A stretch of DNA of 64,000 bases from an uncultured Gammaproteobacteria bacterium (GTDB taxonomy: Bacteria > Patescibacteriota > Microgenomatia > 2-02-FULL-39-11), in NCBI GenBank assembly GCA_964544585.1, contig CAZJBV010000002.1, forward strand, positions 131,468-195,467. The letters run 5' to 3'. This document shows, piece by piece, positions 41,524 through 58,883 of the stretch. The notes below the pieces were generated by a model, which was not told where the DNA came from, did not search any database, and was given only the letters and a program-made list of their open reading frames with translations. A program made the translations under genes and the position numbers. Numbering within the stretch: position 1 is the first letter of the stretch; each line of letters begins with the position of its first letter.

Positions 41524-41596
41524 AGCCGACAGTCGGTCTCGAACCGACGACCTACGCTTTACGAAAGCGCCGCTCTGCCAACTGAGCTATGTCGGC
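41524..41596 (-). tRNA. tRNA-Thr (anticodon CGT), no encoded CCA
   Basis: Reverse-complement cloverleaf: acceptor gccgaca/tgtcggc, D arm gctc-agttggca-gagc, anticodon loop ttCGTaa, T arm gtcgg-ttcgaga-ccgac. Confidence 0.85.
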
Positions 41597-41646
41597 AATC
41601 TTCTCTTATATATTCTACCAAAAAAAGATATAATGTTTAAAATCTA

Positions 41647-42510
41647 ATGAACAAAAGGAAATTCATCTTCTTGGTTTATCTCTTTGTCGTCACTCTAATA
41701 ATCCTCGTTGGCTCGGCTTTCATTATTAATAAACCAAAACTAAATAATGTCGCCGGCCTCCAGATTAGTTTACAAGTTTCTCCTACCCAAAACCCAACAT
41801 CACCTCCCACCCCAACACTAATTCCATTCTCCGTAACTATCAAAAATGCTCCCAAAGAAATTACAGAAGGTGGGTTGGCCACATTTACCTGGAGTATAAA
41901 TGGAGCTTCTGGTGTAATCCATACAACCACAATCTATTATGGCGAAAAAAGTAACCCCCAAGTTTTTACAACGAGCATGACTCCCGAAAATTCACAATAT
42001 ACTTTTGCCCTAAAAGATTTTTTACAAGGAAACTATGTTATACCCCTAGAGTTTATCGCAAATGCAGAAAATGTTCCCTCCGGTACATATTATTTTCGCG
42101 GCTATGCTTTCATAAATGGCCAGCATTACTGGACCAATGAGCAAATTTTTTTAGTTAAGGAAAAACCCCTCCCATCAATTACCATAATAGACCCACCCAC
42201 CAAAGTCCGAGCTAATGAAAATTTCTCCTTCACCTGGGACATATCAGGACCTACGGCAAGTACAGATTATACAACCATAGTTGCATCCAGAGAGTCAAAA
42301 CCGGGATTGATTGAAAATACTATCGACAGAAGTCAGACTCCATATAATAATGTTTTAGTAGACGAATTTACTCAAGGAAAATACGATGTGCCTCTTAGAT
42401 TTGTAGGTAACACCTCAATTTCAGAATCCGGCACCTACTACATCCGCGCCACAGCCAAAATAAATGACAAATATCTCTGGTCAGACGAATATACTCTGAA
42501 AATCGAATAA
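41647..42510 (+). CDS. Secreted protein with an internal tandem duplication of a domain of about 100 aa
   Basis: Signal/TM anchor. The two halves share TWSINGASG…GNYVIPLEFIANAENVPSGTYYFRGYAFINGQHYWTNE and FTWDISGPTAS…GKYDVPLRFVGNTSISESGTYYIRATAKINDKYLWSDE. Confidence 0.4.
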   Translation: MNKRKFIFLVYLFVVTLIILVGSAFIINKPKLNNVAGLQISLQVSPTQNPTSPPTPTLIPFSVTIKNAPKEITEGGLATFTWSINGASGVIHTTTIYYGEKSNPQVFTTSMTPENSQYTFALKDFLQGNYVIPLEFIANAENVPSGTYYFRGYAFINGQHYWTNEQIFLVKEKPLPSITIIDPPTKVRANENFSFTWDISGPTASTDYTTIVASRESKPGLIENTIDRSQTPYNNVLVDEFTQGKYDVPLRFVGNTSISESGTYYIRATAKINDKYLWSDEYTLKIE

Positions 42511-42620
42511 TCTCTTTTCAAACACCCCCTTTGTCAAAAGGAATTTGAATTATATTTTTCCACAATATCATTACAGCCTCTATAAAAGCATATATTATCG
42601 GTATCTGCTACTATGTAAAT

Positions 42621-43133
42621 GTGAATAAGAAAAACAAAATGAGAAAAAGGAAAAATAAACCAATAGTATATGCCTTTATAGATAGCCAAAACCTAAATCT
42701 TGGAGTTAGATCGCAAGGGTGGGAATTGGACTTTCGACGTTTTCGAATTTATTTGCACGAAAAATACAATGTAAAAAATGCATATCTATGTATAGGATAT
42801 ATTCCTAACAATAAAAAGTTATATGATTTTCTAAAGGAAGCAAAATACATTTTGATTTATAAACCAGTCTTGGAGCCAAAACATGCCAAAGTGAAAGTAA
42901 AAGGGAATGTTGACGCCGAGTTAGTATTGCATGCAATGATTGAATTCCCAAAGTACAACAAAGCAATTATTGTTAGTGGAGACGGAGACTTTCATTGTCT
43001 TATTGAATATCTCCATGGAAAAAACAAATTAGCAAAGATAATTGTGCCAAATAAGAAATACTCCTCTCTTTTAAGGAAATTTAGCAATTATATAGTCAAT
43101 ATCGATTTGATGAAGAGCAAATTAAAACAATAA
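42621..43133 (+). CDS. NYN-domain (LabA/PIN-like) putative ribonuclease
   Basis: IVYAFIDSQNLNLG…and the IVSGDGDF motif. Confidence 0.6.
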   Translation: MNKKNKMRKRKNKPIVYAFIDSQNLNLGVRSQGWELDFRRFRIYLHEKYNVKNAYLCIGYIPNNKKLYDFLKEAKYILIYKPVLEPKHAKVKVKGNVDAELVLHAMIEFPKYNKAIIVSGDGDFHCLIEYLHGKNKLAKIIVPNKKYSSLLRKFSNYIVNIDLMKSKLKQ

Positions 43134-43322
43134 AAAATGAGAGGCATTCCCTCGGGACGAAACCCTTTGGTAGTCCTCTCATCGTGATTGAATTTATAAT
43201 ATCAAATCGGATATAGAAAGTCAACCCAAATACTATATTCCATACAAAAAATTTCTATAGAACTAATTCCTTGAGTCGTCGAACAAACGTGTCAATTTCT
43301 TCTTTGGTAGTATCAAAAGAGG

Positions 43323-44156
43323 TTACAAGTCTTCCTTAATCTGCTGATATAAATACGCACACATATCATTTGCCCATTTTGCATTCTTCTTCCAGATTTC
43401 CTTCTCAAAGAAAGGAATAAACTGCCCAGAAAGATAGCGCATCTTTGAATAAAGCTGCATACCCTGTTTTTGTAAAATTTCAAAATCCTGCTGATAATTT
43501 TTATTGAAAATTACCACCGCCTCAGCAAACATCAATCCATTTTTCGTTCCTCCCAATGAGACAATATCGGGCTTGGAAGCTCTTACCATGTCCTCAAGTG
43601 ATACATTTAATGATACGGCTGCATTATAAATGCGGCAAAAATCGATATGAAATAAAAGATTATGTTTTTTGCAGAATTTAGACATTTTTTGTAGCTCGGA
43701 AAGGCTATATACCGTACCATATTCAGTAGATTGAGCAATTGAAAGCATGCGAGGCCTTGGTCCATGAGGTATATTATCCAATTGCCGTAACACAAGTTCT
43801 TCTGCAACCTCAAGATCGATTTTTCCGTGAGTAACAGGAATCGGAACAAGTTTATTTTGAGCTATTGCTTCGGGCGCTCCAGCCTCATTTGTATTTAAGT
43901 GGCTTGTCTCAGCAACAAGGACTGACTCCGTCGATTTCAAACACTGTTTGATGCTTAATACATTTGCAGCCGTTCCGGTCAAGACCAAATAAACGTGAGC
44001 CCCTTCATCTCCAAGTGTCTTTTGGATTATTTTCTTTGCGGCAGCTGTATAGTCGTCATTGCCATAGGCCCGGGCGTGTCCAGTATTTATTTCCCCTAGG
44101 TATTCCAATATTTCGGGTGAAACAGAGCTATAATTATCACTAGCTAAACTTTTCAT
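43323..44156 (-). CDS. Low-specificity threonine aldolase-family PLP enzyme, apparently disrupted near the 3' end
   Basis: LTGTAAN, HIDFCRIYNAAV and SLGGTKNG motifs align with LtaE. The last ~25 codons of the family (GRLVTSFDTTKEEIDTFVRRLKELVL*) are in another frame at 43255-43335. Confidence 0.6.
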   Translation of the reverse strand: MKSLASDNYSSVSPEILEYLGEINTGHARAYGNDDYTAAAKKIIQKTLGDEGAHVYLVLTGTAANVLSIKQCLKSTESVLVAETSHLNTNEAGAPEAIAQNKLVPIPVTHGKIDLEVAEELVLRQLDNIPHGPRPRMLSIAQSTEYGTVYSLSELQKMSKFCKKHNLLFHIDFCRIYNAAVSLNVSLEDMVRASKPDIVSLGGTKNGLMFAEAVVIFNKNYQQDFEILQKQGMQLYSKMRYLSGQFIPFFEKEIWKKNAKWANDMCAYLYQQIKEDL

Positions 44157-44184
44157 AGCAATTGCTATTTTAACATCTTATACT

Positions 44185-44934
44185 TTAATTTATTATTTGA
44201 AATAGTCTTTTAGCGCCTAAAACCAATCTCGGCCCTGGTGTATTTAAAAGAGCATCATCTATAAAATATATTTTTCCCTCAGAAACGGCTCGTAAATCAC
44301 CCCACCCTTTTCGATTTTTAATCTCTTCCGGCTTGTAAATGTCGCCAGCTCCACACCAATGACAGACTATTATATCAGGATCAAAATGCCGAATTTCATC
44401 CAATGTCACTTCGCGACTCCTTTCCCCAGGCTTTACCAAATCTTCTCTTCCCCCCGAAACCTCCAAAATATCCGGCACCCAATTTCCCGATACAAATGGC
44501 GGCGTATGCCATTCTTCCATATATACTTTCGGCCTCCTTCTACTTTTCTTGCCATCGCCAATTTTTCTAAATTCCTCTTTCATTTTCTCTACAATCGATC
44601 TCCCTTTTGCTTCTTTCCCCACCGTCCTTGCCATAGTCATTATTGCTCCGAATACTCCATCAAGCGTTCTGGGGTCTACAAAAACTATTTTTTCTTTTCC
44701 CTCCCATTTTTCCAACTCCCTCGGCAAATATGAAGATGTAAAAATAAGATCAGCATCATATAAAGAAAGTTTTTCCACTTCTGTCCTAATCCACGTCCCA
44801 ATCTTTGGCTTTTTCTTGATACTAGGAGGATAATCACAAAGATGAGTCACCGCAACCAACTCATCTTCACACCCCAAAGCGCAAAGTATTTCCGTCGTAG
44901 CAGGGGAGAGGGAAATATACTTCATACTAACCAA
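44185..44934 (-). CDS. BtuF/FepB-like periplasmic-binding-protein-fold protein (Peripla_BP_2); no signal peptide
   Basis: ISLSPATTEILCALGCEDELVAVTHLCDYPP…KPKIG…LYDADLIFTS pattern characteristic of cobalamin/siderophore-binding proteins. Confidence 0.55.
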   Translation of the reverse strand: MVSMKYISLSPATTEILCALGCEDELVAVTHLCDYPPSIKKKPKIGTWIRTEVEKLSLYDADLIFTSSYLPRELEKWEGKEKIVFVDPRTLDGVFGAIMTMARTVGKEAKGRSIVEKMKEEFRKIGDGKKSRRRPKVYMEEWHTPPFVSGNWVPDILEVSGGREDLVKPGERSREVTLDEIRHFDPDIIVCHWCGAGDIYKPEEIKNRKGWGDLRAVSEGKIYFIDDALLNTPGPRLVLGAKRLFQIIN

Positions 44935-45424
44935 AAGGAATTTCCATTGTATATTTCCACCTATCTGGCTCTTGGGTTACGGGCGTGACAATAAATTTGT
45001 CAACTGTAAATGAGGATTGCGTCATCTTTATTTCATTAGCAACTTTTTCTCTGGTTTGCATATCATGATCTCCATATAAAAGGCTGATATGTGGCATAAA
45101 AACAGTATTTTCCATCCTAAACTGCCTTTTTAATTCCAGATTTATTTGCAGCAATTCTGCTGTAGAATCTACCCTGACAAAAACTGATTGAAAATATGTC
45201 GTACTGAATGAAACCTGGCCCAAAGTTAGTTTCAGCTTATTTAATTTTGAAGCAACAAGCGAAGTTTTTTCCTTAATTTCATCTAAATTTTTTTCTATAT
45301 TTCCCAAAATTGTCATGTGCGGCTCAAAAGTCGGCCCACGATATTTTCCCGCCAAATTCTTAATGATGGACTTAAGCCTCCCATATACCGGCTCCGGCGG
45401 CACAACCCATATACTATATTCCAT
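44927..45424 (-). CDS. 2H phosphoesterase (LigT / 2'-5' RNA ligase-like cyclic phosphodiesterase)
   Basis: Two H-x-T/S-x motifs (HMTIL and HISLLY) at the correct spacing. Confidence 0.6.
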   Translation of the reverse strand: MEYSIWVVPPEPVYGRLKSIIKNLAGKYRGPTFEPHMTILGNIEKNLDEIKEKTSLVASKLNKLKLTLGQVSFSTTYFQSVFVRVDSTAELLQINLELKRQFRMENTVFMPHISLLYGDHDMQTREKVANEIKMTQSSFTVDKFIVTPVTQEPDRWKYTMEIPFG

Positions 45425-45433
45425 ATTTTATTG

Positions 45434-45505
45434 AGCGGGCGATGGGCTTTGCACCCACGACCTTCTCCTTGGGAAGGAGACATTCTACTCCTGAACTACG
45501 CCCGC
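45434..45505 (-). tRNA. tRNA-Gly (anticodon CCC) with an atypical T-loop
   Basis: Reverse complement folds: acceptor gcgggcg/cgcccgc, anticodon loop ttCCCaa, T arm gtggg-tgcaaag-cccat (G at position 55 in place of the conserved U). Confidence 0.55.
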
Positions 45506-45544
45506 ATTATATCCATTATATCAAATCGGGCGCGCAGAACTGTT

Positions 45545-46189
45545 TTATCTTTGGATCTTTAACACATTACCTGTATGAATCGTATCAGGATGAACGAGTT
45601 TATTTGCTTGTGCAATTTTTACCCAACTGTAACCGTCCCCGTATGCTCTAACCGCAATATCCCAAAGGTAGTCACCTTCTTTAACTGTATAAGAATCTGA
45701 CGTAATTCGGGAAGTAGAAGTTGCGGAAATCTCCCCTCCCACAGTAATAGTCTGAGAAGATGGAATATTAAGTTCCTGCCCTACTTCAATAGTATCAGGA
45801 TCGGCAAGCTTATTTTCATTTGCAATTGTCACCCAATTGTATCCGCTGCGATAATATTTTTCAGCTATCGACCAGAGATTTTCCCCGACTGCAACTTTAT
45901 GAACCGTTGGTATAGGAAAAGCCGGCGCAACTTCCGGACCTGGCTGCGACGTTTCAATCTCTCCTCTTTGAGGAGCTTGCGTCATCTTTCCTCGATTTAC
46001 AAAATTAAAGATCAATAATCCGGCAACAACTACCACCAGAAACCCAAGACCCATCGAAATGTACGATTCGGGAAATTTCAACGACTTAGTATATTCTTTC
46101 CACATTAAAACTAATCCTCCTTTCCGGGGCAGAAATTTTGGGGCAGTCCGCCAGCTGGCGGATGGAAGCAAAACGTAATAAATTTGCAA
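45545..46189 (-). CDS. LysM-domain peptidoglycan-binding protein (two LysM repeats) with an N-terminal TM anchor
   Basis: YTVKEGDYLWDIAVRAYGDGYSWVKIAQANKL and a second copy VAVGENLWSIAEKYYRSGYNWVTIANENKL. Confidence 0.75.
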   Translation of the reverse strand: MQIYYVLLPSASWRTAPKFLPRKGGLVLMWKEYTKSLKFPESYISMGLGFLVVVVAGLLIFNFVNRGKMTQAPQRGEIETSQPGPEVAPAFPIPTVHKVAVGENLWSIAEKYYRSGYNWVTIANENKLADPDTIEVGQELNIPSSQTITVGGEISATSTSRITSDSYTVKEGDYLWDIAVRAYGDGYSWVKIAQANKLVHPDTIHTGNVLKIQR

Positions 46190-46243
46190 AGCAAGTTTAA
46201 ACGTTTCAGCAACGTTGATCCGCCAGAGGCGGATCTCTCGTTG

Positions 46244-46318
46244 CGGGGCCGGCGGGACTCGAACCCGTAACCTTCGCCGTGACAGGGCGATGCTCTAACC
46301 AAATTGAGCTACGACCCC
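46244..46318 (-). tRNA. tRNA-Asp (anticodon GTC)
   Basis: Reverse complement folds: acceptor ggggtcg/cggcccc, anticodon loop ctGTCac, T-loop ttcgagt. Confidence 0.8.
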
Positions 46319-46382
46319 AAGGACAGGCTTAAAAGGCATAATAACAAATGATTGAGACAGGGTCAATACGTATGATACACTT

Positions 46383-48170
46383 TTGACAATGACAAATCAC
46401 GAAATAGCCAAACTTCTCCAAAACATTGCCGCCGCCTACACAATTTTAGGCGCCATGCCTGCCGGCAGGCAGGAAAATCGTTTTAAAATCCTAGCCTACG
46501 AAAATGCAGCCAAAGGTGTAGAGTCATCAAATAGAGAAATAGAAGATCTCTGGAAAGAGAAAAAATTATCCGAAGTCGAAGGCATTGGCAGTTCAATTGC
46601 CTCCCATCTAGATGAGCTATTTCGCAAGGGAAAAGTAGCCCATTTTGAGTCCATTATCAAAAGAGTTCCTGAAGCTGTATTTCCACTTCTTGAAATTCCC
46701 GGTTTTGGAGCCAAAAAATCGTATAAATTGGCCAAAGTGCTAAATTTAAAATCGGCAAAAACAGTAATTTCTGATCTCGAAAAAGCTGCCCGTCAGGGAA
46801 AAATAGCCAAAATTGAAGGTTTTGGAGAGAAATCTCAACATGACATTCTAGAATCAATTGCGTTATATAAATCCCTCGGCGGTAGAGAGCGCCGTATGCC
46901 CCTTCCCACAGCCGGAGAACTGGCTAAAAAAATAGTTTCTTATTTAAAAAGATATTCAGAAACACTCGATATTGCTCCGATGGGAAGCCTGCGCCGCATG
47001 AAAGAAACTGTTGGTGATATTGACCTCGCTGTTGCTACCACCAAACCTGACAAAGTAATTCAGGCTTTTTTATCTTTTCCTGGCATTTCCAAAATAGTCG
47101 AAGAGGGAAAAGAGGGAGCTACCATCCTTTTACAAAACGATGAGCATATTGATCTGCGGATTATAGACCCTCAAAGGTGGGGGTCTATGCTCCAATATTT
47201 TACCGGCAGTAAAAACCACAATATTAACCTGCGTGAGTTTGCCCTCAAAAAAAATCTTTCCCTGAACGAATACGGCATAAAAAATCTAAAAACGGGAAAA
47301 ATGAATACATTTAAAACTGAGAAGGATTTTTATAAATTCTTAGGCCTTCCCTGGATTCCGCCTGAAATCCGGGAAGACAGAGGAGAAATAGAGGTAGCCA
47401 TCAACAGTAAATTACCTCACCTGGTAGAACTTGCCGACGTCAGGGGTGATCTTCAGGTACACTCAAATTACCCCATCAAACCTAGCCACGATTTAGGCCG
47501 AGATTCAATGGAGGATATCCTCCATAAAGCAAAAAGCTTAGGTTACGAATATATTGCTTTCACCGAGCACAACCCCAATGTATCAAATTTAAAAGAAAAA
47601 GAAATAATAGAAATTATGAAGCGACGAAAATCAAAAATTGAGCAACTAAAATCGAAAACAAAAAGTGTTCGAATACTCAATCTACTCGAAATAGACATTT
47701 TAGCAAATGGTAAATTGGCTTTACCTGAAAATGCCTTTGCTTATATCGACGCCGGCCTAGCCTCGATCCATTCTAGCTTCAATCAGGACAAAGATGCAAT
47801 GACAAATAGAATCCTCAAAGGATTAAGCCACCCTAAAATAAAAATATATGCCCATCCAACGGCCAGACTCATCAATAAACGCGAGGGTATAAAAGCCGAC
47901 TTCAATGTGATTTTTAACTTTTGCGCCAAACAAAAAAAAGCACTCGAAATAAATTCATATCCTCTCCGTCTTGATCTTCCGGACGATTTGATAATCGATG
48001 CCAAGAAAAAAGGTTGTAAGTTTTCCCTGGGAACGGACGCCCATGATAGTGCCGGGATGTTTCTTATGCCTTATGGCGTGGCCATGGCCAAACGAGGCTG
48101 GCTAACCAAAAATGACATAATAAACACAATGGAGTATAATGAACTTTATTCTTGGCTGACGAGGAGGTGA
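46383..48170 (+). CDS. polX: Family X DNA polymerase with a C-terminal PHP phosphoesterase domain (PolX)
   Basis: HhH / Pol-beta-like N-terminal half ([27 protein letters not shown]) and a PHP domain with His/Asp motifs. The 16-nt core of the palindromic element (cctgccggcaggcagg) at 46458-46473 encodes MPAGRQE. Confidence 0.75.
46458..46473. repeat. Remnant core of a palindromic element inside polX
   Basis: Exact 16-mer cctgccggcaggcagg shared with the long-form elements. Confidence 0.5.
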
Positions 48171-48180
48171 CCACAAATTT

Positions 48181-48738
48181 ATGAATATAACGCTATGGAT
48201 AATCATCGCAATTGTAGGCTTGATAGTACTCTTTTTCTGGAGTCTCTACAACGGCTTGGTCACCCTCAAACTGCGTGTCAAAGAGGCATGGAGTCAGATA
48301 GACGTCCAGCTCAAAAGAAGAGCCGATCTTATCCCAAATCTTGTTAACACCGTCAAAGGCTACGCCAAACACGAAAAAAGTGTCTTTGAAAATGTGACTA
48401 AGGCTAGAAGCGCGCTTATGAAGGCGGATACGCCGGCGGGAAAAGCACAGGCCAATAATATGTTGACCGATGCTCTAAAGTCGCTTTTTGCCGTAGCCGA
48501 AAACTACCCTCAGCTCCGGGCAAGTGAAAACTTCAATGCTTTGCAAAAAGAACTATCAGACACAGAAGATAAGGTAGCTTATTCAAGACAATTCTATAAT
48601 TCTACTGTTCTTGAATATAACAGAACAATTAAAGTCTTCCCTAATGTCCTTTTTGCCGGAATGTTCGGTTTTACCGAGGAGCAGTTTTTTGAAACAAAGG
48701 GACAAGAGAGGGAAAAAGTTGAGGTGAAATTTGATTAA
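48181..48738 (+). CDS. lemA: LemA-family membrane protein
   Basis: N-terminal TM helix and the LemA signature region [19 protein letters not shown]. Confidence 0.8.
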
Positions 48739-49632
48739 ATGGCTAATATCTATAGTCAGGTCGAATCCAACAAGACAAAAACCATAATTATCATGGTTTT
48801 ATTTGTTGCATTTATTTCTCTTGTAGCATTTATTTTTGGTAAGGCAACAGGTTACGGTCTTTCGTTTGTTGGTATTGCCCTCATAATTTCCGGACTTTTG
48901 AGTTTGGGCAGCTACTACTGGGGAGACAAAATGATTTTGGCCATGTCCGGCGCCAAGCCTGCAGATAGAAACAGAGACTTTGATTTTTTTACCGTGGCCG
49001 AAAATTTGTCAATCGCCGCCGGCATCCCTAAACCAAAACTCTATATAATAGACGACACGGCCCCAAATGCTTTTGCCACCGGACGGGATCCGCAACACGC
49101 AGTCGTTGTAGCAACCTCTGGGATACTCCAAAAACTCGAAAGGACAGAACTCGAAGGAGTCATTGCCCACGAACTTTCGCATGTCAAAAACTACGACATT
49201 AGACTCCTGGCAGTCGTCTCCATTTTGGTTGGGACGGTAGCTTTTCTTTCCGATTTATTTCTGCGTAACCTCTGGTGGGGAGGAGGAAGAAGAAGTAGTC
49301 GGGACTCGGGTGGGATCTTTATCATAATCGGCATTGTTTTAGCAATTCTCTCGCCTTTTATAGCCAGTCTCATTCATCTTGCAGTTTCCCGAAGAAGAGA
49401 ATTTCTAGCCGATGCATCTGGTGCCCTTCTTACTCGATATCCTGAAGGTCTTGCCCGGGCACTCGAAAAGATATCCAAAGACAAAGAAGTCTTGGAAGTT
49501 GCCAACAACGCCACAGCTTCACTCTACATAATCAATCCTTTTAAAGGAAAAGACTTCGGAAGCATGTTTGCCAATCTTTTCAATACCCATCCTCCAATTG
49601 AGGAAAGGATAAAAATATTAAGATCAATGTAA
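48739..49632 (+). CDS. htpX: M48-family zinc metalloprotease HtpX-like
   Basis: HEXXH as AHELSHV. TM segments. A LemA-HtpX pair is a common arrangement. Confidence 0.8.
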   Translation: MANIYSQVESNKTKTIIIMVLFVAFISLVAFIFGKATGYGLSFVGIALIISGLLSLGSYYWGDKMILAMSGAKPADRNRDFDFFTVAENLSIAAGIPKPKLYIIDDTAPNAFATGRDPQHAVVVATSGILQKLERTELEGVIAHELSHVKNYDIRLLAVVSILVGTVAFLSDLFLRNLWWGGGRRSSRDSGGIFIIIGIVLAILSPFIASLIHLAVSRRREFLADASGALLTRYPEGLARALEKISKDKEVLEVANNATASLYIINPFKGKDFGSMFANLFNTHPPIEERIKILRSM

Positions 49633-49644
49633 ATATGCAATACT

Positions 49645-51009
49645 ATGAATCAAATCCTCATTCTTCTCGGCAAAATCATTTCTGCCCTCAGTAAAATTAC
49701 CAACCTTGGTAGTGGTAGCACCTGGCCGGGTGAAATAGCGTTAATAACAAATCCAAATATTTTGGCTCATTTTTTTAACAAAGTAAAAAAAGGAATCATT
49801 ATAATCGCCGGCACAAATGGTAAAACCACTACCGCAAAAATGGTTCAAGAAATGATAAGCTCACAGTATCCCATAGACACTATAGTTCACAACGATTCAG
49901 GTGCCAACCTCTTAAACGGCATAACTTCAGCCTTTATAAAAAAGGCCAAAATTATTACGAACAGTTATTTTGACTGGGCAGTCTTGGAAGTCGACGAAAA
50001 TACTCTTCCCATTTTACTTAAATATCACCTCAGCCATAAAGACACCTCGGATGGTGTGCGCATAAAGACACCTCCGAGGTGGCCCGCCCGCCTGCCGGCA
50101 GGCAGGGAAGGGACTCCTCGGATGGTGGAGAAACCAGCAAAGCCCAAAATTGTCATTGCCCTTTTAAATCTTTTTCGCGACCAGCTCGATAGATATGGAG
50201 AGGTAGATACCATTGTCTCAAAATGGTTGTCTGCCCTCAAAAATTATTTGGGAAAAGTCAATCTCATTACCAATGCCGATGATCCCACCATTGCCTACAT
50301 GGGTCTTTCTTGTCAAAAGAATGTCACTTTTTTTGGTATAGACAAGGCAAAAGGCATAAAAGAAATAGAGCATGCTACAGACTCCATCTTTTGCCCGCTA
50401 TGTGGACATAAATTAAGTTATGAGGCCGTCTATTATTCTCATATAGGTAGATGGGCTTGTCCATCATGCAACCTTAATCGTCCTAAAATCCAAACCGCAA
50501 GTATAAAAACCAAATTACCAGGTCTATACAATTTTTATAATACACAATGCGCCGTATTAATTGCTCAAACAATCGGAATAAAAGAATCTAATATAAAGTC
50601 AGCTCTCCAAAATTTTACCCCCGCCTTTGGCCGCCAAGAGGAATTCAGCATCAATGGTAAAAAAATTAAAATCTTCCTCTCCAAAAACCCAGTCGGCTTC
50701 AATGAATCTCTAAAAACTGTCATCGATCTCGGCGCCAGGCAAGTGCTTCTCGTTTTAAACGATAGGATACCCGACGGCCGCGACGTCTCCTGGATTTGGG
50801 ACGTAGACTTTGAAATAATTCCTGAAAACACCCAAATCATAGCTTCAGGAGAAAGATGCTATGACCTTGCCCTCCGCCTCAAATACGCAGGCAAAAAATT
50901 TGAAATAGAAAAAGACTTGAGAAAATCCATCCAGTCAGATTATATTTTGCCTACCTATTCGGCCATGCTCGAAGTTCGAAAAATTTTGACGGGCAAAAAA
51001 ATTCTTTAA
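49645..51009 (+). CDS. murT: Mur-ligase-like lipid II isoglutaminyl synthase subunit MurT, carrying a palindromic-element insertion
   Basis: Mur ligase P-loop IIAGTNGKTTTA, Cys4 ribbon CPLCGH…CPSCN, and a DUF1727-like C-terminus. Element at 50041-50129 encodes [31 protein letters not shown] in frame. Confidence 0.65.
   Translation: MNQILILLGKIISALSKITNLGSGSTWPGEIALITNPNILAHFFNKVKKGIIIIAGTNGKTTTAKMVQEMISSQYPIDTIVHNDSGANLLNGITSAFIKKAKIITNSYFDWAVLEVDENTLPILLKYHLSHKDTSDGVRIKTPPRWPARLPAGREGTPRMVEKPAKPKIVIALLNLFRDQLDRYGEVDTIVSKWLSALKNYLGKVNLITNADDPTIAYMGLSCQKNVTFFGIDKAKGIKEIEHATDSIFCPLCGHKLSYEAVYYSHIGRWACPSCNLNRPKIQTASIKTKLPGLYNFYNTQCAVLIAQTIGIKESNIKSALQNFTPAFGRQEEFSINGKKIKIFLSKNPVGFNESLKTVIDLGARQVLLVLNDRIPDGRDVSWIWDVDFEIIPENTQIIASGERCYDLALRLKYAGKKFEIEKDLRKSIQSDYILPTYSAMLEVRKILTGKKIL
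50041..50129. repeat. GC-rich palindromic element, long form
   Basis: gacacctcggatggtg-tgcgcataaa-gacacctccgaggtgg-cccgcccg-cctgccggcagg-cagggaaggga-ctcctcggatggtgg. Confidence 0.85.
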
Positions 51010-51026
51010 CTACCAAACTACAAACT

Positions 51027-51854
51027 ATGAACTACAAACTAACTATCGGCTGGCTCTATCCTGATTACATGTCGACCTATGGAGATCGTGGTAATATTAT
51101 TTGTCTGACCAAACGATGCCAATGGAGAAAAATTAATGTCGAAATTAAGAAAATAGAATTTGAAACACTCCCACAAGAAATCGATTCTTGCGATTTGATT
51201 ATCGGCGGCGGAGCCCAAGATAGGCAACAGGAATTGGTGGCAAAAGATCTTTTAAAGAAAAAAAATATTTTTAGAATATTATTTAATAGGGGAGTGCCAG
51301 GTCTTTTTGTCTGCGGCTCTCCCCAACTTCTTGGTCACTATTACATGACAGGGGATGGGAAAAAATTGGCAGGCCTAGGAATTTTCGACTATGTTACCAA
51401 GCATTTCGGACATGACAAACCCCGCTGCATCGGCAACACAGTCGCAAAAGTCATCGGCATAAACACCTCGGATGGAAAGACACCTCCGAGGTGGCCCGCC
51501 CGCCTGCCGGCGAGGCAGGAAGGGACTCCTCGGATGGTGGAAGGATCACAAACCATCGTCGGTTTTGAAAATCATGGTGGTAGAACATATTTAGGCTCCA
51601 GCGCAAATCCCTTTGCCAAAGTTTTAGCTGGCTATGGCAATAATGGGGAAGATGGATACGAAGGCGCAATCTACAAAAATGTCATCGCCTGCTACTACCA
51701 CGGCCCCTTTCTTCCCAAAAATCCCCATATTGCAGATTGGCTTCTTACCCGCGCACTTGAAGTCAAATACAAAAAAGTTATACAATTGGGACCTCTCGAT
51801 GATGGACTTGAATGGCAAGCGCATGATTTTATATTAAATAGGGTCAGACCTTAA
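51027..51854 (+). CDS. gatD: CobB/CobQ-type glutamine amidotransferase GatD (lipid II isoglutaminyl synthase glutaminase subunit), carrying a palindromic-element insertion
   Basis: LYPDYMSTYGDRGNI N-terminus characteristic of GatD. Catalytic Cys in FVCGSPQLLGHY. Sits directly downstream of murT. Element at 51463-51542 encodes [27 protein letters not shown]. Confidence 0.65.
   Translation: MNYKLTIGWLYPDYMSTYGDRGNIICLTKRCQWRKINVEIKKIEFETLPQEIDSCDLIIGGGAQDRQQELVAKDLLKKKNIFRILFNRGVPGLFVCGSPQLLGHYYMTGDGKKLAGLGIFDYVTKHFGHDKPRCIGNTVAKVIGINTSDGKTPPRWPARLPARQEGTPRMVEGSQTIVGFENHGGRTYLGSSANPFAKVLAGYGNNGEDGYEGAIYKNVIACYYHGPFLPKNPHIADWLLTRALEVKYKKVIQLGPLDDGLEWQAHDFILNRVRP
51463..51542. repeat. GC-rich palindromic element, long form (core variant cctgccggcgaggcagg)
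   Basis: aacacctcggatgg-aaa-gacacctccgaggtgg-cccgcccg-cctgccggcgaggcagg-aagggactcctcggatggtgg. Confidence 0.85.
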
Positions 51855-51876
51855 ACGCATTCAAGGTTGACCCTGA

Positions 51877-52617
51877 ATGCAGTCCAAAGTGAAAAATTAT
51901 TCTAACGAACTAAAAGATCTCAAAAAAGAGCTTTCTTTTCTTTACAAAGTGGCTCAATCTGTCCATAGTCTGGAGCTCGAGGAATTATTAAAAGAAATTG
52001 TTAAAATAGCTAAGGATGTGAGTAGGGCAGATTCAGTCCTGGTGTATATACTGGATAAAGTAAAGCAATCGCTAATTCTTCGTTCTTCTCTCAATCCCCA
52101 TCGCGACCTTTTAAAAGCAATCAAAATGAAAATGGGGGAGGGGATAACCGGCTGGGTAGCCAAAGAAAAAAAACCCGTCGCCATTCTCGAAGGAGCAAGT
52201 CTCGATCCGCGCTTTAAATATTTCCGAAGCCTTCCCGAAGATAAATTTGAAGCCTTTCTTTCCGTTCCTATTATTAACAAAGTTGGCGTAGTCGGAGTTA
52301 TAAACGTCCAACACAAAAAAAGACACCCGCATTCCCAAATGGAAATAAATCTTCTGTCTGCAATTGGAAAGCTAGTGGGGGGCGCAGTCGAAAATGCCCT
52401 TTTAGTCGAAGAATCCATGGCCCTACGAGAAGCACTCGAGATGAGAAAACTCATAGAAAAAGCCAAAGGTATTTTAATGAAAAGAAAAAATATTAGTGAG
52501 CAGGAAGCATATAGAGAAATACAAAAAGAGAGCATGGATAGCAGAAAATCTCTCAAAGAGGTTGCTGAAGCAGTGATTCTAGCCGATAAATTAAATTTAG
52601 GGGTTGACAGAAGATAA
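51877..52617 (+). CDS. GAF-ANTAR RNA-binding antitermination regulator
   Basis: GAF domain (GITGWVAKEKKPV…) followed by the ANTAR helix region AKGILMKRKNISEQEAYREIQKESMDSRKSL. Confidence 0.65.
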   Translation: MQSKVKNYSNELKDLKKELSFLYKVAQSVHSLELEELLKEIVKIAKDVSRADSVLVYILDKVKQSLILRSSLNPHRDLLKAIKMKMGEGITGWVAKEKKPVAILEGASLDPRFKYFRSLPEDKFEAFLSVPIINKVGVVGVINVQHKKRHPHSQMEINLLSAIGKLVGGAVENALLVEESMALREALEMRKLIEKAKGILMKRKNISEQEAYREIQKESMDSRKSLKEVAEAVILADKLNLGVDRR

Positions 52618-52741
52618 AATTTGCATTAGGATGTACTATATTCTTGCAAAGAAGCGAGAGTTGACAAGGAAGTCTTCCAGATTTCGCAACGAGCGAATGA
52701 GGAAGATTTTTTATTGGAATTATTAAATAAAGGAGAGCTTT

Positions 52742-54175
52742 ATGACTTTTCGAGAAATAAAAACAACCATCAAATCCAAAGGCATTAAAATTATTGATCT
52801 CAAGTTTGTCGATATTAGAGGAGTTTGGCAGCATGCTTCTATTCCGGTCAGTGAATTTGACGAATCATCAATCACTCGCGGGATTGGCTTTGACGGTTCT
52901 TCAATCAAAGGATTCCAACAGATCCACGAGTCTGATATGATACTGTTGCCAGATATCACTACCGCCCATCTCGATCCCTTTACCGAAATACCTACTCTTA
53001 CAGTTATCTGTGACGTCTTTGATCCTCTAAAAAAGGAATATTTCTCCCGTGATCCGCGAAACTTAGCCAAAAAAGCGGAAAACTATCTCAAAAAATCGGG
53101 AATCGCCGATAAAAGTTATTGGGGGCCGGAAGCAGAATTTTTCCTATTTAGTAGTCTGTCTTATAATATAGAACCTTATCACAATAGTTATCAATTAGAC
53201 AGTCGTGAGGCTCACTGGAATGCAGGTAAAAATGGCGAGCCCAATACTCATATTACAATTAGACCCAAAGAAGGCTATTATCCCGTCCCACCCCAAGATA
53301 CACTCCAGGATATAAGAAGCGAGATGGTACTAACCCTTGAATCTTGGGATATACCAGTCGAAATGCAGCACCATGAAGTCGCCGCGCCAGGACAGGCCGA
53401 GATTGATATGCGCTTTGATACCCTCACCAAAATGGCCGATAATGTCATGTCTTATAAATATATTGTCAAAAATACGGCTAAAAAACATGAAATGGTGGCC
53501 ATCTTTATGCCCAAACCAGTTTTTGGCGACAATGGCAGTGGCATGCACGTCCATCAAAGCTTGTGGAAAGGTTCTAACAATCTATTTTATGACGAGAAAG
53601 GCTACGCCGAGCTTTCCAAAACCGCTCTTTACTATATTGGCGGCCTCCTGACTCACATTGATGCGCTTCTTGCCTTCTGTGCTCCGACGACAAATTCATA
53701 CAGACGGCTCGTGCCGCATTATGAAGCTCCCGTCAATGTGGCATTTTCCAAAAGGAATAGAAGTGCCGCAGTCAGAATCCCAATGTACTTCTCTGGCCCT
53801 AAAAATGCCAAGAGTAAAAGAATTGAATTTAGGCCGCCAGATGTGGCCGCCAATCCTTATCTTGCCTTTGCCGCCATGCTCATGGCTGGAATTGACGGTA
53901 TTAAAAATAAAATTGATCCAATAAAAGCAGGCTTCGGACCTTTAGACAAAAACATTTATGAACTCGCGCCCGAAGAGGCCAAAAAAGTAAGAAGTGTACC
54001 TGGATCACTTTTTGAAGTAATTAGAGCGCTCGAAAAAGATCATAAATTCTTACTCGAGGCAGGTGTATTTACCGAGGATATATTAGATACGTGGATCAAT
54101 CTCAAAAGGGGCGAAGCTCAAGAGGTTTCCATCCGTCCTACACCCTACGAATTCTATCTTTACGCAGACATGTAA
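52742..54175 (+). CDS. glnA: Glutamine synthetase type I
   Basis: Beta-grasp N-terminus (IKIIDLKFVDIRGVWQH) and catalytic-domain motifs (MPKPVFGDNGSGMHVHQS, SYRRLVPHYEAP). No adenylylation-loop tyrosine was examined. Confidence 0.85.
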   Translation: MTFREIKTTIKSKGIKIIDLKFVDIRGVWQHASIPVSEFDESSITRGIGFDGSSIKGFQQIHESDMILLPDITTAHLDPFTEIPTLTVICDVFDPLKKEYFSRDPRNLAKKAENYLKKSGIADKSYWGPEAEFFLFSSLSYNIEPYHNSYQLDSREAHWNAGKNGEPNTHITIRPKEGYYPVPPQDTLQDIRSEMVLTLESWDIPVEMQHHEVAAPGQAEIDMRFDTLTKMADNVMSYKYIVKNTAKKHEMVAIFMPKPVFGDNGSGMHVHQSLWKGSNNLFYDEKGYAELSKTALYYIGGLLTHIDALLAFCAPTTNSYRRLVPHYEAPVNVAFSKRNRSAAVRIPMYFSGPKNAKSKRIEFRPPDVAANPYLAFAAMLMAGIDGIKNKIDPIKAGFGPLDKNIYELAPEEAKKVRSVPGSLFEVIRALEKDHKFLLEAGVFTEDILDTWINLKRGEAQEVSIRPTPYEFYLYADM

Positions 54176-55590
54176 AGGTTTCTTTTCACCCTCTGCACAT
54201 CATCAGCGAATGGTTCTCGCATGATTTCATCCTTATAATTATTTAACATGAAATCAATTAACTCAGAACATGCTATTCTGTTTTCAGTTGGTAAGGCGTC
54301 ATCAGAATAAAATCCCGCCCAAAGTTTTACAATTGCCGGTTTGATATGCATGGGAAGTAAAACTACATAATCTTTCAAAATAGTTGCGGAAGGATATATT
54401 CCTTCTACTGGATTCCATGTCCTCGGCTCACCATTTTCAGTTACAGCAAAAGCAGCCAAAGATCTACCCTCCGCCACTCTTTCACCACAAATAACCCGAA
54501 TCGCCTCGGCAATATCTTTTCTCGTCGTTGCTGAATGATTAAGTATAAATAATACTGCCTCTGCATTTTGAAATTCTTCATATGTAGGAACGTCTGATAG
54601 CAAATTGACAGGCTTTATAACAATGCGTCCTGAGGAATCTCTGGGATGGTCTACAGGATCTAATGTCAGATGATGCAATAACCACCCTCGTTTTGAATCA
54701 CTACTAGTATCTCCCAAATATTTAAATAACCACTTTTTTCCATGCTGTTGCTGTATAAGCCATAAATTACGCTTTGGATGCTTAAATCTATATTCATCCA
54801 TCGCCTCAATCAATGATTCAAATGATTTTTGGAAAAAAAGATATGAGAGTAAATCAGTCCGGTCCCTATAAAGCTTTCTTCTAGCAAGTTCTAGATTAAC
54901 CGCCTCTTTATCTTTAAAATCAAAAAATTTCATTGGTTCGCCATGCCAAGTTTCTTTCATAGCTCGGTGAGCTGAAATAATATTTTCGTTAGAAACTAGA
55001 AAAACGCCACCTCTTCCATTTTTTCTGTCTCTATTTGAGGGGTCGGAATCTTCAAGTGCCACTCTTACATGCATTAAAGTTTCAGAATCAGTATGAGTAA
55101 CCGGCTTATTTGCCCATACAAGGTAAAAGCTTATACCTCTTTCTTCCAATTCTTCTCCAATACCAGAATGCAGTTTTTCACCGATTACTTCTGCCATATC
55201 AGATCCAATAATCATCAAATAAGTATCGCTTTCAGGAGTTCCATTTATAGCTTTCACCGTAAGTTTCTCTAACTCATTCAAAGTTTCTAGTGTATGATCT
55301 TCGCTCAGTCCATGAAAAACTATTCTTTCTTCTGGATCAATACGATCTGCAAATTGTAGTAGAGCTTTCGATAAAAAATCACTCGGATGAGGATTATTTA
55401 TTCCTCCCACTCTTACACCAGCAATCTCATCACTAAAAGGCGTTCCACCTCCAAGAAGAATAGTTGTTCTTCCATGATAAGAAGTACGCTCTTTTATTGA
55501 TGGTCGTATTCTTACTTCAGGCCAAAAGATTATCCCAATCTTGTCTCGCAAACTTACTAATTCTTTCTTCATAAGCCTATAATTATACAC
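54160..55590 (-). CDS. Conserved hypothetical protein (476 aa), function unknown
   Basis: Long ORF with motifs GGGTPFSDEIAGVRVGG and HGLSEDH and no family I can assign. Lies between glnA and gatCAB. Confidence 0.4.
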   Translation of the reverse strand: MYNYRLMKKELVSLRDKIGIIFWPEVRIRPSIKERTSYHGRTTILLGGGTPFSDEIAGVRVGGINNPHPSDFLSKALLQFADRIDPEERIVFHGLSEDHTLETLNELEKLTVKAINGTPESDTYLMIIGSDMAEVIGEKLHSGIGEELEERGISFYLVWANKPVTHTDSETLMHVRVALEDSDPSNRDRKNGRGGVFLVSNENIISAHRAMKETWHGEPMKFFDFKDKEAVNLELARRKLYRDRTDLLSYLFFQKSFESLIEAMDEYRFKHPKRNLWLIQQQHGKKWLFKYLGDTSSDSKRGWLLHHLTLDPVDHPRDSSGRIVIKPVNLLSDVPTYEEFQNAEAVLFILNHSATTRKDIAEAIRVICGERVAEGRSLAAFAVTENGEPRTWNPVEGIYPSATILKDYVVLLPMHIKPAIVKLWAGFYSDDALPTENRIACSELIDFMLNNYKDEIMREPFADDVQRVKRNLYMSA

Positions 55591-55950: not shown

Positions 55951-57357
55951 ATGTTAGTTGATTTATCCATAGAAGAACTCTCAAAAGGGTTGAAAGAAAA
56001 GAAATTTTCCTCGGTAGACATTCTCAAAGAATGTATTGCCAATATAGGCCGTTTGAATCCATCACTAAATGCATTTATTACTCTACGTGATGAAAAAGAC
56101 CTTTTAGCCGAAGCTCGTCAAAAAAATAAGGAACGTACAACGGAAAGTTCTATCCTCCACGGTCTGCCATACGTCATCAAAGATGCATATAACACCTCGG
56201 GTCTTAGAACAACCGCTGCCTCAAATGTCTTAAAAGATTATATTCCTCCCTATAGCGCTACTGTCTACCAAAAACTTCAGGATGCCGGAGCAATTCTTTT
56301 AGGCAAAACCAATATGGACGCCTGGGGACACGGCGCATCATCTGAAAATACTGACTTTGGGCCAGTTAAAAATCCGTGGGATTTATCGCGAGTCGCAGGT
56401 GGCTCAAGTGGAGGAAATGCGGCGGCAATCGCAACTGGCATGGCAGTCTTTGGCATCGGTGAAGATACTGGAGGTTCAATTCGAAATCCATCTGGCTGGT
56501 GTAATATAACGGGTTTGAAAGTAACCTATGGTAGAGTTTCGAGATACGGCTGTATCGCCTACGTCTCATCGTTTGACACCATGGGTCCTATGGCAAAAAC
56601 ATCAGAAGATTGTGCTCATATTTTAAAAGCCATTGCCGGATTCGATCCCTACGATGCCACCAGTTCCAATAAAGGCGTGCCAGACTATGGAAAAATTATC
56701 AGACAAAATTTGAAAAAAATAACCATCGGCATGCCCAAAGAATTTTTTGGCAGGGGAGTGGATCATGAAATTATAGATCTTATTAAAAGTGCAACCATAG
56801 AATTTCATAAAATGGGACACGAAATAAAAGAAATTTCTATGCCCATGCTTGCTTTTGGCGTACCCGTCTATTATCTCATAGGAACAAGCGAGACAAGTAC
56901 GAATTTAGCAAGATACGACGGAATAAGATATGGAAACGGTAGAGACCAATTTACCAAAGAAACCATGCGCCGCATCATGCTCGGAACTTACGCCCTTTCG
57001 GCTGGATATTACGATGCTTATTATAAAAAAGCCCAACAAGGCAGAACTCTTTTTATCAAAGAATATCAACAGGCTCTATCAGAATGCGATGTTATTCTCA
57101 TGCCAGTCGAGCCAATGGCCGCGACAAAAATAGGAGAATTAATCAACAATCCCATTCAAAATATGCTAGCAGATATTTTCACCTGTCAAACGCCTGTTGG
57201 AGTTCCCTCGATTGCTCTCCCTTGCGGTTTTACCAAAGAAAAATTACCAGTCGGCATGCAACTTATAGGCAATATGTTTACAGAAGACTTGCTACTCCAG
57301 CTAGGCTACTCATATCAGGAGCGTACCGATTGGCATAAGATAAAACCAAATCTATGA
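55951..57357 (+). CDS. gatA: Asp/Glu-tRNA(Asn/Gln) amidotransferase subunit A
   Basis: Amidase signature [15 protein letters not shown] with the Ser-cisSer-Lys triad region. The start is moved to the ATG at 55951 just after the gatC stop. Confidence 0.85.
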
Positions 57358-58883
57358 ACAATTACGAACCAATAATTGGTCTTGAAATTCACGTCGAACT
57401 AAAGACCAAATCAAAAATGTTCTGTGGTTGCAGGGCCGATTGGTTTGGTTTGCCCCCAAATTCCAATACTTGCCCTGTTTGTCTAGGTCTACCTGGTGCA
57501 CTTCCGGTTCCCAACAAAAAAGCAGTCGAATGGTGTATCATGCTCGGCCTTGCCCTAAATTGCCAAATCCCCGAAACATCTAAATTTAATCGAAAAAATT
57601 ATTTTTACCCCGATCTTCCCAAAGGTTATCAGATATCACAATACGATCAACCCCTTGCGATAAATGGATGGTTGGAAATAAATAAGCCACAAGACACCTC
57701 GGATGGTGGCGAAGCAACGACTTCGACTCCTCCGAAGGTGCGAAGGGACCGGAAAAGAATAGGCATCACCCGCGTCCACATGGAGGAAGATACAGGCAAA
57801 CTTCTCCATGCCAAAGTCGAGGGTTCAAACGTTTCCTTAGTCGATTTTAATAGAAGCGGCGTCCCTCTCGTCGAAATAGTTACAGAACCTGACATAAGAA
57901 GTAGTGAGGAAGCTCGAACTTTTCTTAAAAAACTCCACCAAATAATTCGCTACTTGGGTATTTCCGACGCCGATATGGAAAAAGGCTCCATGCGCCTCGA
58001 GCCAAATATCTCTCTCCGAAAAAGAACAGGCGACAAAGACACCTCGGACGGTGTCCGCCAGCCGGCGGACTCCTCCGAGGTAAAGACACCTCCGAGGTGG
58101 CCCGCCCGCCTGCCGGCAGGCAGGGAAGGGACTCCTCGGATGGTGGAGGAAGCATTACCAAACTATAAAGTCGAAGTCAAAAATATCAACTCATTTAATT
58201 TTGTTAAAAAAGCAATCGATTTTGAATTAGAGCGCCATACGGATATTTTAGAAAGGGGTGAGTTGCCTATACAAGAAACTCGCGGCTGGGACGAAAAAAA
58301 AGGCATAACATATTCTCAAAGATCAAAAGAAGAAGCCCACGACTACCGCTATTTTCCCGAACCAGATATTCCTCCAATGAGATGGGGAAAAGAGCAAATA
58401 TCAAAAATCAAAGATCAAAAACCCGAACTTCCCGATGCTAAAATAAAAAGATTTATCAAAGATTATAAGTTGTCAGAATACGACGCAACAATTTTGACAG
58501 ACGAAAAATCAACCGCTGACTATTTCGAAAAAGCCTTAAAGACACCTCGGGGGTGGCCGAATGGACTCCCCCGAGGTGGAGAGACCGGAATAAACCCCAA
58601 AACCATCGCCAATTGGATTATAAACAAACGGATTGATACATCAAGGATTTCGCCAGAAGAACTCATCAAATTGATAACAAGTAAAACACAAACTATTCAA
58701 ATAGATGAAAAAGAATTGGAATCAATCATCAAAAGAGTCCTCTCTCAAAACCCCAAAGCCGTCTCCGACTACAAAGCCGGAAAACAACAAGCTATAATGT
58801 TTCTAGTCGGCCAAGTAATGCGAGAAACCAAAGGAAAAACTGATGCGAAAAAGATAAAAACAAAGCTAAAAAATATGATATAA
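57354..58883 (+). CDS. gatB: Asp/Glu-tRNA(Asn/Gln) amidotransferase subunit B, interrupted in frame by three palindromic elements
   Basis: N-terminus [23 protein letters not shown] and the C-terminal YqeY/GatB tail. Insertions at 57693-57740, 58038-58148 and 58541-58579 are all in frame. Confidence 0.85.
57693..57740. repeat. GC-rich palindromic element (short arm-only form with a nested cgaag..cttcg hairpin)
   Basis: gacacctcggatggtgg-cgaagcaacgacttcg-actcctccgaaggtg. Confidence 0.7.
58038..58148. repeat. Composite GC-rich palindromic element: an arm-only unit followed by a full long-form unit
   Basis: gacacctcggacggtg-tccgccagccggcgga-ctcctccgaggt-aaa-gacacctccgaggtgg-cccgcccg-cctgccggcagg-cagggaaggga-ctcctcggatggtgg. 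Confidence 0.85.
58541..58579. repeat. Short-form GC-rich palindromic element; same loop as the 19067 copy but with a co-varied stem
   Basis: gacacctcggggg-tggccgaatggact-cccccgaggtgg. The stem cgaagg/ccttcg in the 19067 copy is cggggg/cccccg here. Confidence 0.75.

Follow-up and report, generated by a model that had tools for sequence, protein, structure and literature searches.

Rickettsia palindromic elements (RPEs) are in-frame palindromic repeats that lie in unrelated housekeeping genes of a small genome, where they are translated and are compatible with the fold of the host protein (review PMC10969869). Repetitive extragenic palindromic (REP) sequences carry a defining GTAG (or CGTC) tag and lie predominantly outside genes; copies within genes are also on record from several species (PMC3733652). 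Here we describe a family of hairpin-forming repeats in a 64-kb stretch of DNA (the window; GC 39%) from an uncultured groundwater bacterium of Candidatus Gottesmanbacteria, a member of the Microgenomates group of the Patescibacteria, or Candidate Phyla Radiation (CPR). Two copies lie in frame within adjacent genes, murT and gatD, that are predicted to encode the two subunits of lipid II isoglutaminyl synthase. The published distribution of murT-gatD covers Actinobacteria, Chloroflexi, Firmicutes and Cyanobacteria, with no mention of CPR (PMC6085368), and our literature search found nothing combining MurT, GatD and Patescibacteria. The search also returned no account of this repeat, and nothing relevant on CPR or Patescibacteria with in-frame palindromic repeats or REP-associated tyrosine transposases (RAYTs).

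The murT gene (49645-51009, plus strand) encodes the Mur-ligase-type subunit of 454 aa, and gatD (51027-51854, plus strand) the glutaminase subunit of 275 aa. An earlier reading made from the DNA letters and open reading frames (ORFs), hereafter the sequence-only reading, had recognised the pair from a Mur-ligase paralogue with a Cys4 ribbon followed by a CobQ-type glutamine amidotransferase, and profile searches bear this out. The murT ORF matches Pfam MurT_C/DUF1727 (PF08353) at 98.9 bits against a cut-off of 25, with residues 345-441 spanning the whole profile, and Mur_ligase_M at 45.5 bits; the gatD ORF has a CobB/CobQ-type domain that matches GATase_3 (PF07685) at 105 bits. The best sequence matches in the PDB are the MurT chains 7q8e/6fqb/6gs2 of S. 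aureus, S. pneumoniae and S. pyogenes (E ∼1e-52) and the GatD chains 5n9m/6gs2 (E ∼1e-44), and both alignments are broken in two precisely at the repeat. AlphaFold models built with 60 and 57 homologues reach a mean predicted local distance difference test (pLDDT) score of 87.0 for MurT and 91.5 for GatD; the best Foldseek matches of the former are MurT chains (E 1e-31 to 1e-24), and the latter matches 6gs2_A with a target-normalised TM-score of 0.89 and GatD chains with scores up to 0.91. The two genes are separated by 17 nt in which a terminator scan found nothing, and the same order is seen on two other Gottesmanbacteria contigs, L103 and L104.

Comparison with characterised enzymes supports this assignment at the level of individual residues. 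Mutagenesis in S. aureus has shown that GatD C94 and H189 (the latter in an HGP motif) and MurT D349, E108 and GTNGKT are required for activity, and the Cys4 ribbon is described there as a feature of MurT (PMC6113224); G-A-N and D-E motifs have been described in S. pneumoniae MurT/GatD (PMC6085368). GatD C96 aligns to S. aureus C94, and H225-G-P to H189-G-P, such that HGP replaces HPE as in known GatD proteins; R133 is invariant among homologues. MurT D380, within NDRIPDGRD, aligns to S. aureus D349 and is likewise invariant, as are the Mg-binding acidic residues E115, D117 and E118, the first of which is the counterpart of S. aureus E108. Among 60 MurT homologues, the Cys4 motif CPLCGH...CPSCN (C250/C253/C272/C275) is invariant, and in the GTNGKT loop, which aligns to that of S. 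aureus and S. pneumoniae MurT, the residues G56-T-N-G-K60 and T62 do not vary at all and T61 is almost invariant. G86-A87-N88 corresponds to the S. pneumoniae G-A-N substrate loop, and the D-E motif is also kept. GatD would hydrolyse glutamine, using a catalytic triad predicted to be split over the subunit interface, with Cys96 and His225 contributed by GatD and Asp380 by MurT.

The locus thus resembles MurT/GatD of S. aureus, S. pneumoniae and S. pyogenes (PDB 6GS2, 6H5E, 6FQB, 9SQ9) in its two-gene operon, in a MurT that joins the Mur-ligase middle domain with its Cys4 ribbon to MurT_C and has no UDP-binding N-terminal domain, and in a GatD that is a CobQ-type class I glutaminase. It differs in that identity to the solved proteins is only ∼26-37% (Foldseek alignments), in that the DNAAD motif of known MurT reads DRIPD, and in a repeat-derived loop of ∼30-35 aa in each subunit. 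By itself the pair is a divergent but ordinary, regular member of its family; its enzyme activity is a prediction from sequence, as is the amidation of the peptidoglycan stem peptides of the host, which the sequence-only reading had also proposed.

Both genes had been described as interrupted in frame by a long-form element, a claim that is confirmed by an identical 32-nt core and by syntenic L104 orthologues without the inserts. The murT insert (50038-50130, plus strand; 31 codons, K132-E162) consists of a solo arm at 50038-50056, a linker and a long form of the repeat (family D1) at 50065-50130; a probable tail extends to ∼50141, the element with its tail is 62% GC, and its DNA fold is −26 kcal/mol (z −4.6). 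The gatD insert (51462-51542, plus strand; 27 codons, N146-E172) is a partial arm followed by a long form, with a probable tail to ∼51552 and 64% GC. The core, GACACCTCCGAGGTGGCCCGCCCGCCTGCCGG, is identical at 37254, 50067, 51479 and 58085, always on the plus strand, where no match is expected by chance. These four copies lie in a glycosyltransferase gene, murT, gatD and gatB, and all are read in the same frame to give the same peptide or a close variant. The gatD copy has one base inserted and another deleted ten bases away, which turns PAGREG into PARQEG and leaves the reading frame intact. Each gene would have gained a miniature hairpin-forming repeat with an insertion length that is a multiple of three, and since the long form, read directly, has no stop codon in any of six frames, the inserts would simply be translated.

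The block PolX-LemA-HtpX-MurT-GatD-GatC-GatA-GatB is syntenic on L104 and L103. The L104 orthologues align along their whole length, interrupted only by gaps where the repeats lie; the gap in MurT is ∼34 aa and that in GatD ∼30 aa. The gatB gene (57354-58883) carries three plus-strand copies, a medium form at 57691-57740, a compound medium-plus-long copy at 58036-58150 (DNA fold −42.5 kcal/mol, z −6.6) and a short form at 58539-58578, and these coincide with gaps of ∼26, ∼39 and ∼11 aa, respectively, in L104 GatB. The inserts are also present in a second assembly, GCA_016186845.1; its contig JACPKX010000011.1 is 99.2-99.9% identical to window positions 39453-52252, and its MurT, named at NCBI 'Mur ligase family protein [Candidatus Gottesmanbacteria bacterium]', is 100% identical to that of the window.

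In MurT the insert sits between the helix following the Mg/ATP strand and the strand leading into NLFRDQLDRYG. Across 120 homologues the loop between EVDENxLP and LNLFRDQLDRYG holds from 0 to ∼45 extra residues of unrelated sequence, and is thus a hot spot for inserts. In GatD the insert occupies a loop tip, with R133-IGN on one side and VGFENHGGRT on the other, and the corresponding loop (RxIGN to VGFENHxGRT) also varies in length among homologues. AlphaFold predicts coil for both inserts, with pLDDT of 42-50 in MurT and 52-61 in GatD, between confidently predicted strands and helices. Because both host loops vary in length among relatives, each insert is most likely a tolerated disordered surface loop and not a functional addition. 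On L103 the same MurT loop contains a different nested palindrome (−22 kcal/mol) and the same GatD loop an (ATCAGCT)x4 array. The L103 palindrome, at 2096-2200 of JACQHE010000024.1, has the form TTGTCATCGCGAG...GAAGCGATCTC...GAGATTGCTTC...CTCGCAATGACAA and is read SDGEAIS...EIASS, which indicates that several palindromic repeat families enter coding loops in the Gottesmanbacteria lineage.

In the repeat a variable inner module is enclosed by two arms, (A)AGACACCTC-S-GA(N)GGTG on the left and GGACTCCTC-S-GA(N)GGTG on the right; the dispersed arm sequences are AAGACACCTCCGAGGTGG and GGGACTCCTCGGATGGTGG. Each arm is nearly self-palindromic (CACCT-NNN-AGGTG), and the two arms pair over 11 bp, with a single bulged base, to make a stem. 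What distinguishes the short, medium and long forms is solely the inner module, usually a small hairpin itself; the elements measure 36-110 nt, and their single-stranded DNA folds have z scores of −2.9 to −7.8 relative to shuffled sequences. In 87 of 87 copies the central variable base of one arm is complementary to that of the other (51 C/G and 36 G/C), although this base was left free in the search pattern, and the copies at 19064 and 58539 differ by compensatory changes, GAA/TTC versus GGG/CCC. Together these observations show that the hairpin is under constraint.

A census with a pattern built from the two arms recovered six copies in the window, 70 JGI metagenome contigs and 25 contigs of species-representative genomes. 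The genome contigs belong mostly to Candidatus Gottesmanbacteria metagenome-assembled genomes (MAGs), together with one Woesebacteria and one Microgenomates MAG. Five repeat contigs (L075, L082, L084, L095 and L096) sit in MAGs labelled Gammaproteobacteria or Planctomycetia, labels that are probably binning errors; L096 also encodes a CPR-typical NYELRIK-type repeat peptide. After merging repeated samplings of one site, there are 72 distinct sites in the Gottesmanbacteria, Woesebacteria and Microgenomates assemblies and metagenomes, and 53 of these are inside ORFs of at least 200 codons. Forty-four of the intragenic copies are in the sense orientation (28, 12 and 4 in the three frames) and nine are antisense (binomial p ∼1e-6). 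Hosts in other genomes include arginyl-tRNA synthetase (ArgRS), UvrD helicase, RtcB, dehydroquinate (DHQ) synthase and a P-type ATPase. The same DNA thus gives unrelated peptides in different hosts, so that what is selected is the nucleic acid rather than any protein motif, and the repeat is a DNA- or RNA-level element. The exact long-form core has no match in the species-representative genomes, a set that does not include the present genome, and the 42-aa peptide encoded by the repeat has no match in the protein database, although MurT itself is present there and this search is unsuited to a peptide census. We note that the RtcB host gene (L079, JACREK010000120.1) gives a weak match to a Pfam intein-splicing domain, at 35.2 bits just under the 35.8-bit cut-off, and may hold two different kinds of insert.

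The window contains about a dozen copies of the repeat and one gene for a candidate mobiliser, a RAYT-like Y1 (HUH) transposase of ∼225 aa encoded on the minus strand at 9592-10272. Its product matches Pfam Y1_Tnp at 29.6 bits (cut-off 23) and the NCBIfam model for REP-associated tyrosine transposase at 50 bits, under the cut-off of 80; the best PDB match is E. coli TnpA_REP (4er8, E 0.03), with the HUH motif (MPSHFHLL) and the catalytic tyrosine (YIHLNP) aligned. The protein belongs to a family of at least 519 members of ∼225 aa in Gottesmanbacteria, Woesebacteria, Shapirobacteria and relatives. Downstream of the gene, at 9548-9587, are the palindrome CACCTTAGAGGTG and a GGACACCT hairpin; upstream, at 10292-10346, is a nested hairpin with ACACCTTAGAGGTGT (z −5.6). 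The flanking hairpins carry CACCTTAGAGGTG and GACACCT, an inverted pair GACACCTTTGGTAAATA / TATTTACCAAAGGTGTC brackets the gene (9548-10346), and the flanking palindrome reads CACCTCTAAGGTG. Palindromes of the form (C/A)ACCT-NNN-AGGT(G/T) are found on both sides of the gene in all ten transposase loci compared (the one in the window and nine others), 50-70 nt upstream of the start and 25-30 nt past the stop. The neighbouring housekeeping genes are different at each locus, and the transposase gene looks like a single-copy cassette. The stems of the flanks match the repeat arms (CACCT/AGGTG), and the context of the downstream flank, GGGAC.CCTC...GGTGGA, resembles the right arm.

The interpretation that we favour, and in which we have good confidence, is that murT-gatD is an intact operon for lipid II isoglutaminyl synthase with tolerated selfish-repeat inserts that may have been mobilised by a RAYT-like enzyme. 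The repeat would behave as selfish DNA, probably copied by the transposase encoded at 9592-10272 via a single-stranded DNA hairpin intermediate; taken on its own, mobilisation by this enzyme is a suggestion from flank and arm sequences that we hold as nearly, though not quite, evenly balanced. A number of observations weigh against this interpretation. Both proteins miss the NCBIfam equivalog cut-offs, MurT scoring 223 against 800 bits with NF045635, and GatD 181 against 450 with NF052463 and 164 against 400 with NF045636, albeit that these are the top families, in the case of MurT by a wide margin and with the alignment split by the insert. The shortfall is presumably why NCBI calls the first protein no more than a 'Mur ligase family protein'; among close homologues, some already carry the name 'lipid II isoglutaminyl synthase' (JGI, UniRef). 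The nearest relative shares only 56% identity by BLASTP (62% in a multiple alignment), so that an 'empty site' here means an orthologue without the insert and not a pre-insertion allele. The centres of the flanking palindromes (CTA/TAG, GGG, GAA) differ from those of the dispersed arms (CCG/CGGAT), and in L064 the arms do not co-vary with the flanks. No dispersed copies were found at six transposase loci not chosen for the repeat (∼40 kb in total), and neither target-site duplication nor insertion polymorphism was seen. Finally, the 44:9 bias towards the sense strand could reflect a function at the RNA level.

Such a function would be that of an mRNA hairpin whose anti-Shine-Dalgarno-like (CACCTCC) and Shine-Dalgarno-like (GGAGGTG, with the tail GGTGGAGGAATC) sequences pause or tune translation, or stabilise the message. 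Besides the orientation bias, it is favoured by the presence of every copy in the window, including the intergenic ones, on the plus strand, by RNA folds of −40 to −49 kcal/mol, by the location of some copies near gene starts, and by arms and a 3′ tail (GGTGGAGGAATCAGAAA) that are conserved across genera while the inner module varies. We nevertheless consider it unlikely. The copies occupy unrelated positions in unrelated genes whose orthologues lack them, nine are antisense, and single-strand-specific transposition together with co-orientation of genes could also give the strand bias. Rfam at gathering thresholds returned only tRNAs, and at E ≤1 around the genes a single meaningless snoRNA match, indicating that no known RNA family accounts for the hairpin. 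It is more doubtful still that the insert peptide is an adaptive protein module, a Pro/Arg/Gly-rich loop for the interaction or localisation of cell-envelope and translation enzymes. The shared frame and peptide of the four long-form copies in the window, and the paired indels that leave the gatD frame intact, are what such a module would predict; the family as a whole is read in three sense frames as well as antisense to give unrelated peptides, the inserts are predicted to be disordered, and the closest orthologues do without them.

We regard it as very improbable that murT and gatD have been inactivated by the insertions and are decaying pseudogenes. The inserts are large (∼30-35 aa) and the NCBIfam scores do fall under the equivalog cut-offs, but both ORFs are full length, all catalytic and structural residues tested are conserved, the rest of each fold is confidently predicted, and the insert loops vary in length in many homologues; moreover, the same element lies in the essential gene gatB and, in relatives, in argS and uvrD. 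We give hardly any credence to the proposal that the repeats are assembly artefacts, or that they are removed before translation by splicing or ribosomal bypassing. Strong hairpins, and a short direct repeat (CCTCGGAYG) on both sides of the long form, speak for it. The inserts recur, however, in GCA_016186845.1, the contigs that carry the family number ∼95 and come from many projects, inserts that are stop-free and multiples of three in length need no bypass, and no ribozyme or intron family is matched. Intein, intron and ribosomal-bypass readings were rejected on these grounds, the insert being short, free of stops, a multiple of three in length and without a family match.

Among described repeats, the element resembles the RPEs in behaviour, being a repeated palindrome that lies in frame in surface loops of the products of unrelated genes and is absent from orthologues, although we do not claim homology, given the differences in length and in host phylum. 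RPEs are longer (∼100-150 bp) and have no transposase linked to them; the element described here is modular, with conserved arms that enclose inner hairpins of an interchangeable kind, is read in more than one frame, and shares its window with a RAYT-like gene that has similar flanking palindromes. Both hosts are dependent on another organism. With REP or REPIN (REP doublets forming hairpins) sequences and their RAYTs, of which E. coli TnpA_REP (4ER8) is an example, the repeat shares short GC-rich hairpins that are often paired into a larger hairpin, and a Y1 HUH gene with conserved HUH motif and tyrosine and with similar palindromes on both sides, the classical REP-RAYT arrangement. It has, in contrast, no GTAG/CGTC tag, the tag here being AAGA/GGGA; about three quarters of sites are intragenic, conservation of the arms extends across genera, the palindromes beside the transposase gene differ from the dispersed arms, and the transposase scores under the NCBIfam RAYT cut-off. 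Miniature elements derived from IS200/IS605, such as palindrome-associated transposable elements (PATEs) and miniature transposable elements with inverted repeats (MITEs), similarly have subterminal hairpins on which a Y1 transposase acts in single-stranded DNA, and insert with a strand bias; the present system differs from these in that it has no tnpB, its left and right ends are not distinct, and no target tetranucleotide was identified.

These comparisons leave room for a broader and more tentative picture, possible in our view but on the doubtful side. The repeats may form a REPIN-like population whose main habitat is the protein-coding genes of Microgenomates-group CPR bacteria and which the RAYT-like transposase seeds into permissive loops of essential enzymes. 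Together with the mini-palindromes and 7-nt arrays at the same loops, described below, this population would be a major source of the loop insertions that are specific to lineages among CPR proteins; orientation bias and Shine-Dalgarno- and anti-Shine-Dalgarno-like arms would then be a hint that the repeats have been co-opted for translation.

With murT-gatD, CPR bacteria join the lineages that are predicted to amidate the D-Glu of peptidoglycan, which fits a Gram-positive-like envelope. Of greater interest than the enzyme pair is the intragenic hairpin family itself, which is read in any frame, enters essential genes (gatB, argS, uvrD) and is absent from close orthologues. To our knowledge it is the second large natural example, after the RPEs, of proteins lengthened by mobile palindromes, and unlike the Rickettsia case the CPR palindromes come with a candidate transposase. 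There are practical consequences as well: the inserts lower profile scores and help push real MurT and GatD proteins under the NCBI naming cut-offs, they break assemblies, and they can pass for lineage-specific protein features in CPR genomes.

The remaining copies in the window are also on the plus strand. A long form at 37239-37320, in the same frame as those in murT and gatD, lies in the family-2 glycosyltransferase gene (36760-37695). A short form at 19064-19103 is intergenic between ftsW and murG, and it is this copy whose stem shows compensatory changes relative to the one at 58539. A medium form at 29862-29914 lies at the 5′ end of the minus-strand ORF 29291-29899, where it overlaps the listed start codon, upstream of tRNA-Val, and a further short form at 30436-30474 is just past the stop codon of a minus-strand gene. 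The mini-palindrome GCCTGCCGGCAGGC is the core of the long form, yet it also stands alone at 46448-46475 (polX), 33975-34030 (glycosyltransferase) and 63613-63673. In PolX it constitutes a 7-aa insert (GAMPAGR) that is absent from the L104 orthologue, where a gap of the same 7 aa stands at the repeat position; the copy at 33975 sits between different arms (CACCTTCCAG/CTGGAAGGTG).

A second kind of repeat is present at the junction of the two genes. The start of gatD had been noted to be made of a heptanucleotide tandem repeat also seen in ileS, and Tandem Repeats Finder recovers both arrays, (AACTACA)x4.7 at 51008-51041 (plus strand) and (ACTACAA)x4.6, 100% identical, at 25911-25942 inside an ileS-like ORF. 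The former supplies the TAA stop codon of murT, the 17-nt spacer, and codons 1-5 of gatD, the ATG included. On L104 and L103 the stop codon of murT overlaps the gatD start as ATGA, where the window has ∼29 nt of array instead, and the array adds two codons to gatD, which begins MNYKLTIG here as against MKLTIA (L103) and MKIIIG (L104). Five further period-7 arrays are found at 7739-7770, 14230-14259, 28170-28201, 37678-37709 and 58395-58421. The seven arrays have ∼4-4.7 copies and lengths of ∼26-34 nt, and five of them either cover a start codon or end no more than ∼10 nt upstream of one. Two of the seven share the unit ACTACAA and the others differ, for which a rough estimate of the chance probability is ∼1%. 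Period-7 arrays may be a distinct class of short insert.

The window is rich in genes for the cell wall and division, with a penicillin-binding protein (PBP) transpeptidase, murE, murC, murB, murA, glmU, glmS, a third Mur ligase (12729-14261), ftsW, murG, ftsA and ftsZ. With murE at 853-2067 and murC at 2703-4112, murT is indeed the fourth Mur-ligase-like gene, as the sequence-only reading had counted. The murE ORF has only 404 aa and MurE models align from about position 80, with the preceding ORF ending at 824; its N-terminal UDP-binding domain seems to be missing, or its start miscalled.

GCA_016186845.1 (L001), an assembly of the same population, is without 73 nt of polX (46516-46590) and 131 nt at the start of lemA (48177-48308), and has a 17-nt tandem duplication (48988) that frameshifts htpX. 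We considered the assembly differences as a sign of repeat mobility and rejected this, as short direct repeats border the deletions and none of the differences has to do with the hairpin repeats; the polX, lemA and htpX differences are either assembly variants or population variants. On L103 and L104 gatC-gatA-gatB directly follows gatD; in the window the region between gatD and gatA (51877-55590) contains a GAF-ANTAR regulator, glutamine synthetase and an unassigned 476-aa minus-strand ORF, and a glutamine-supply module is thereby placed between two glutamine-dependent amidotransferase systems. Downstream of gatB are two pairs of direct repeats, 58752-58838/59526-59612 and 60388-60430/61120-61162, with 84-91% identity, the first of which copies sequence coding for the C-terminal (YqeY-like) part of GatB and suggests a partial gene duplication.

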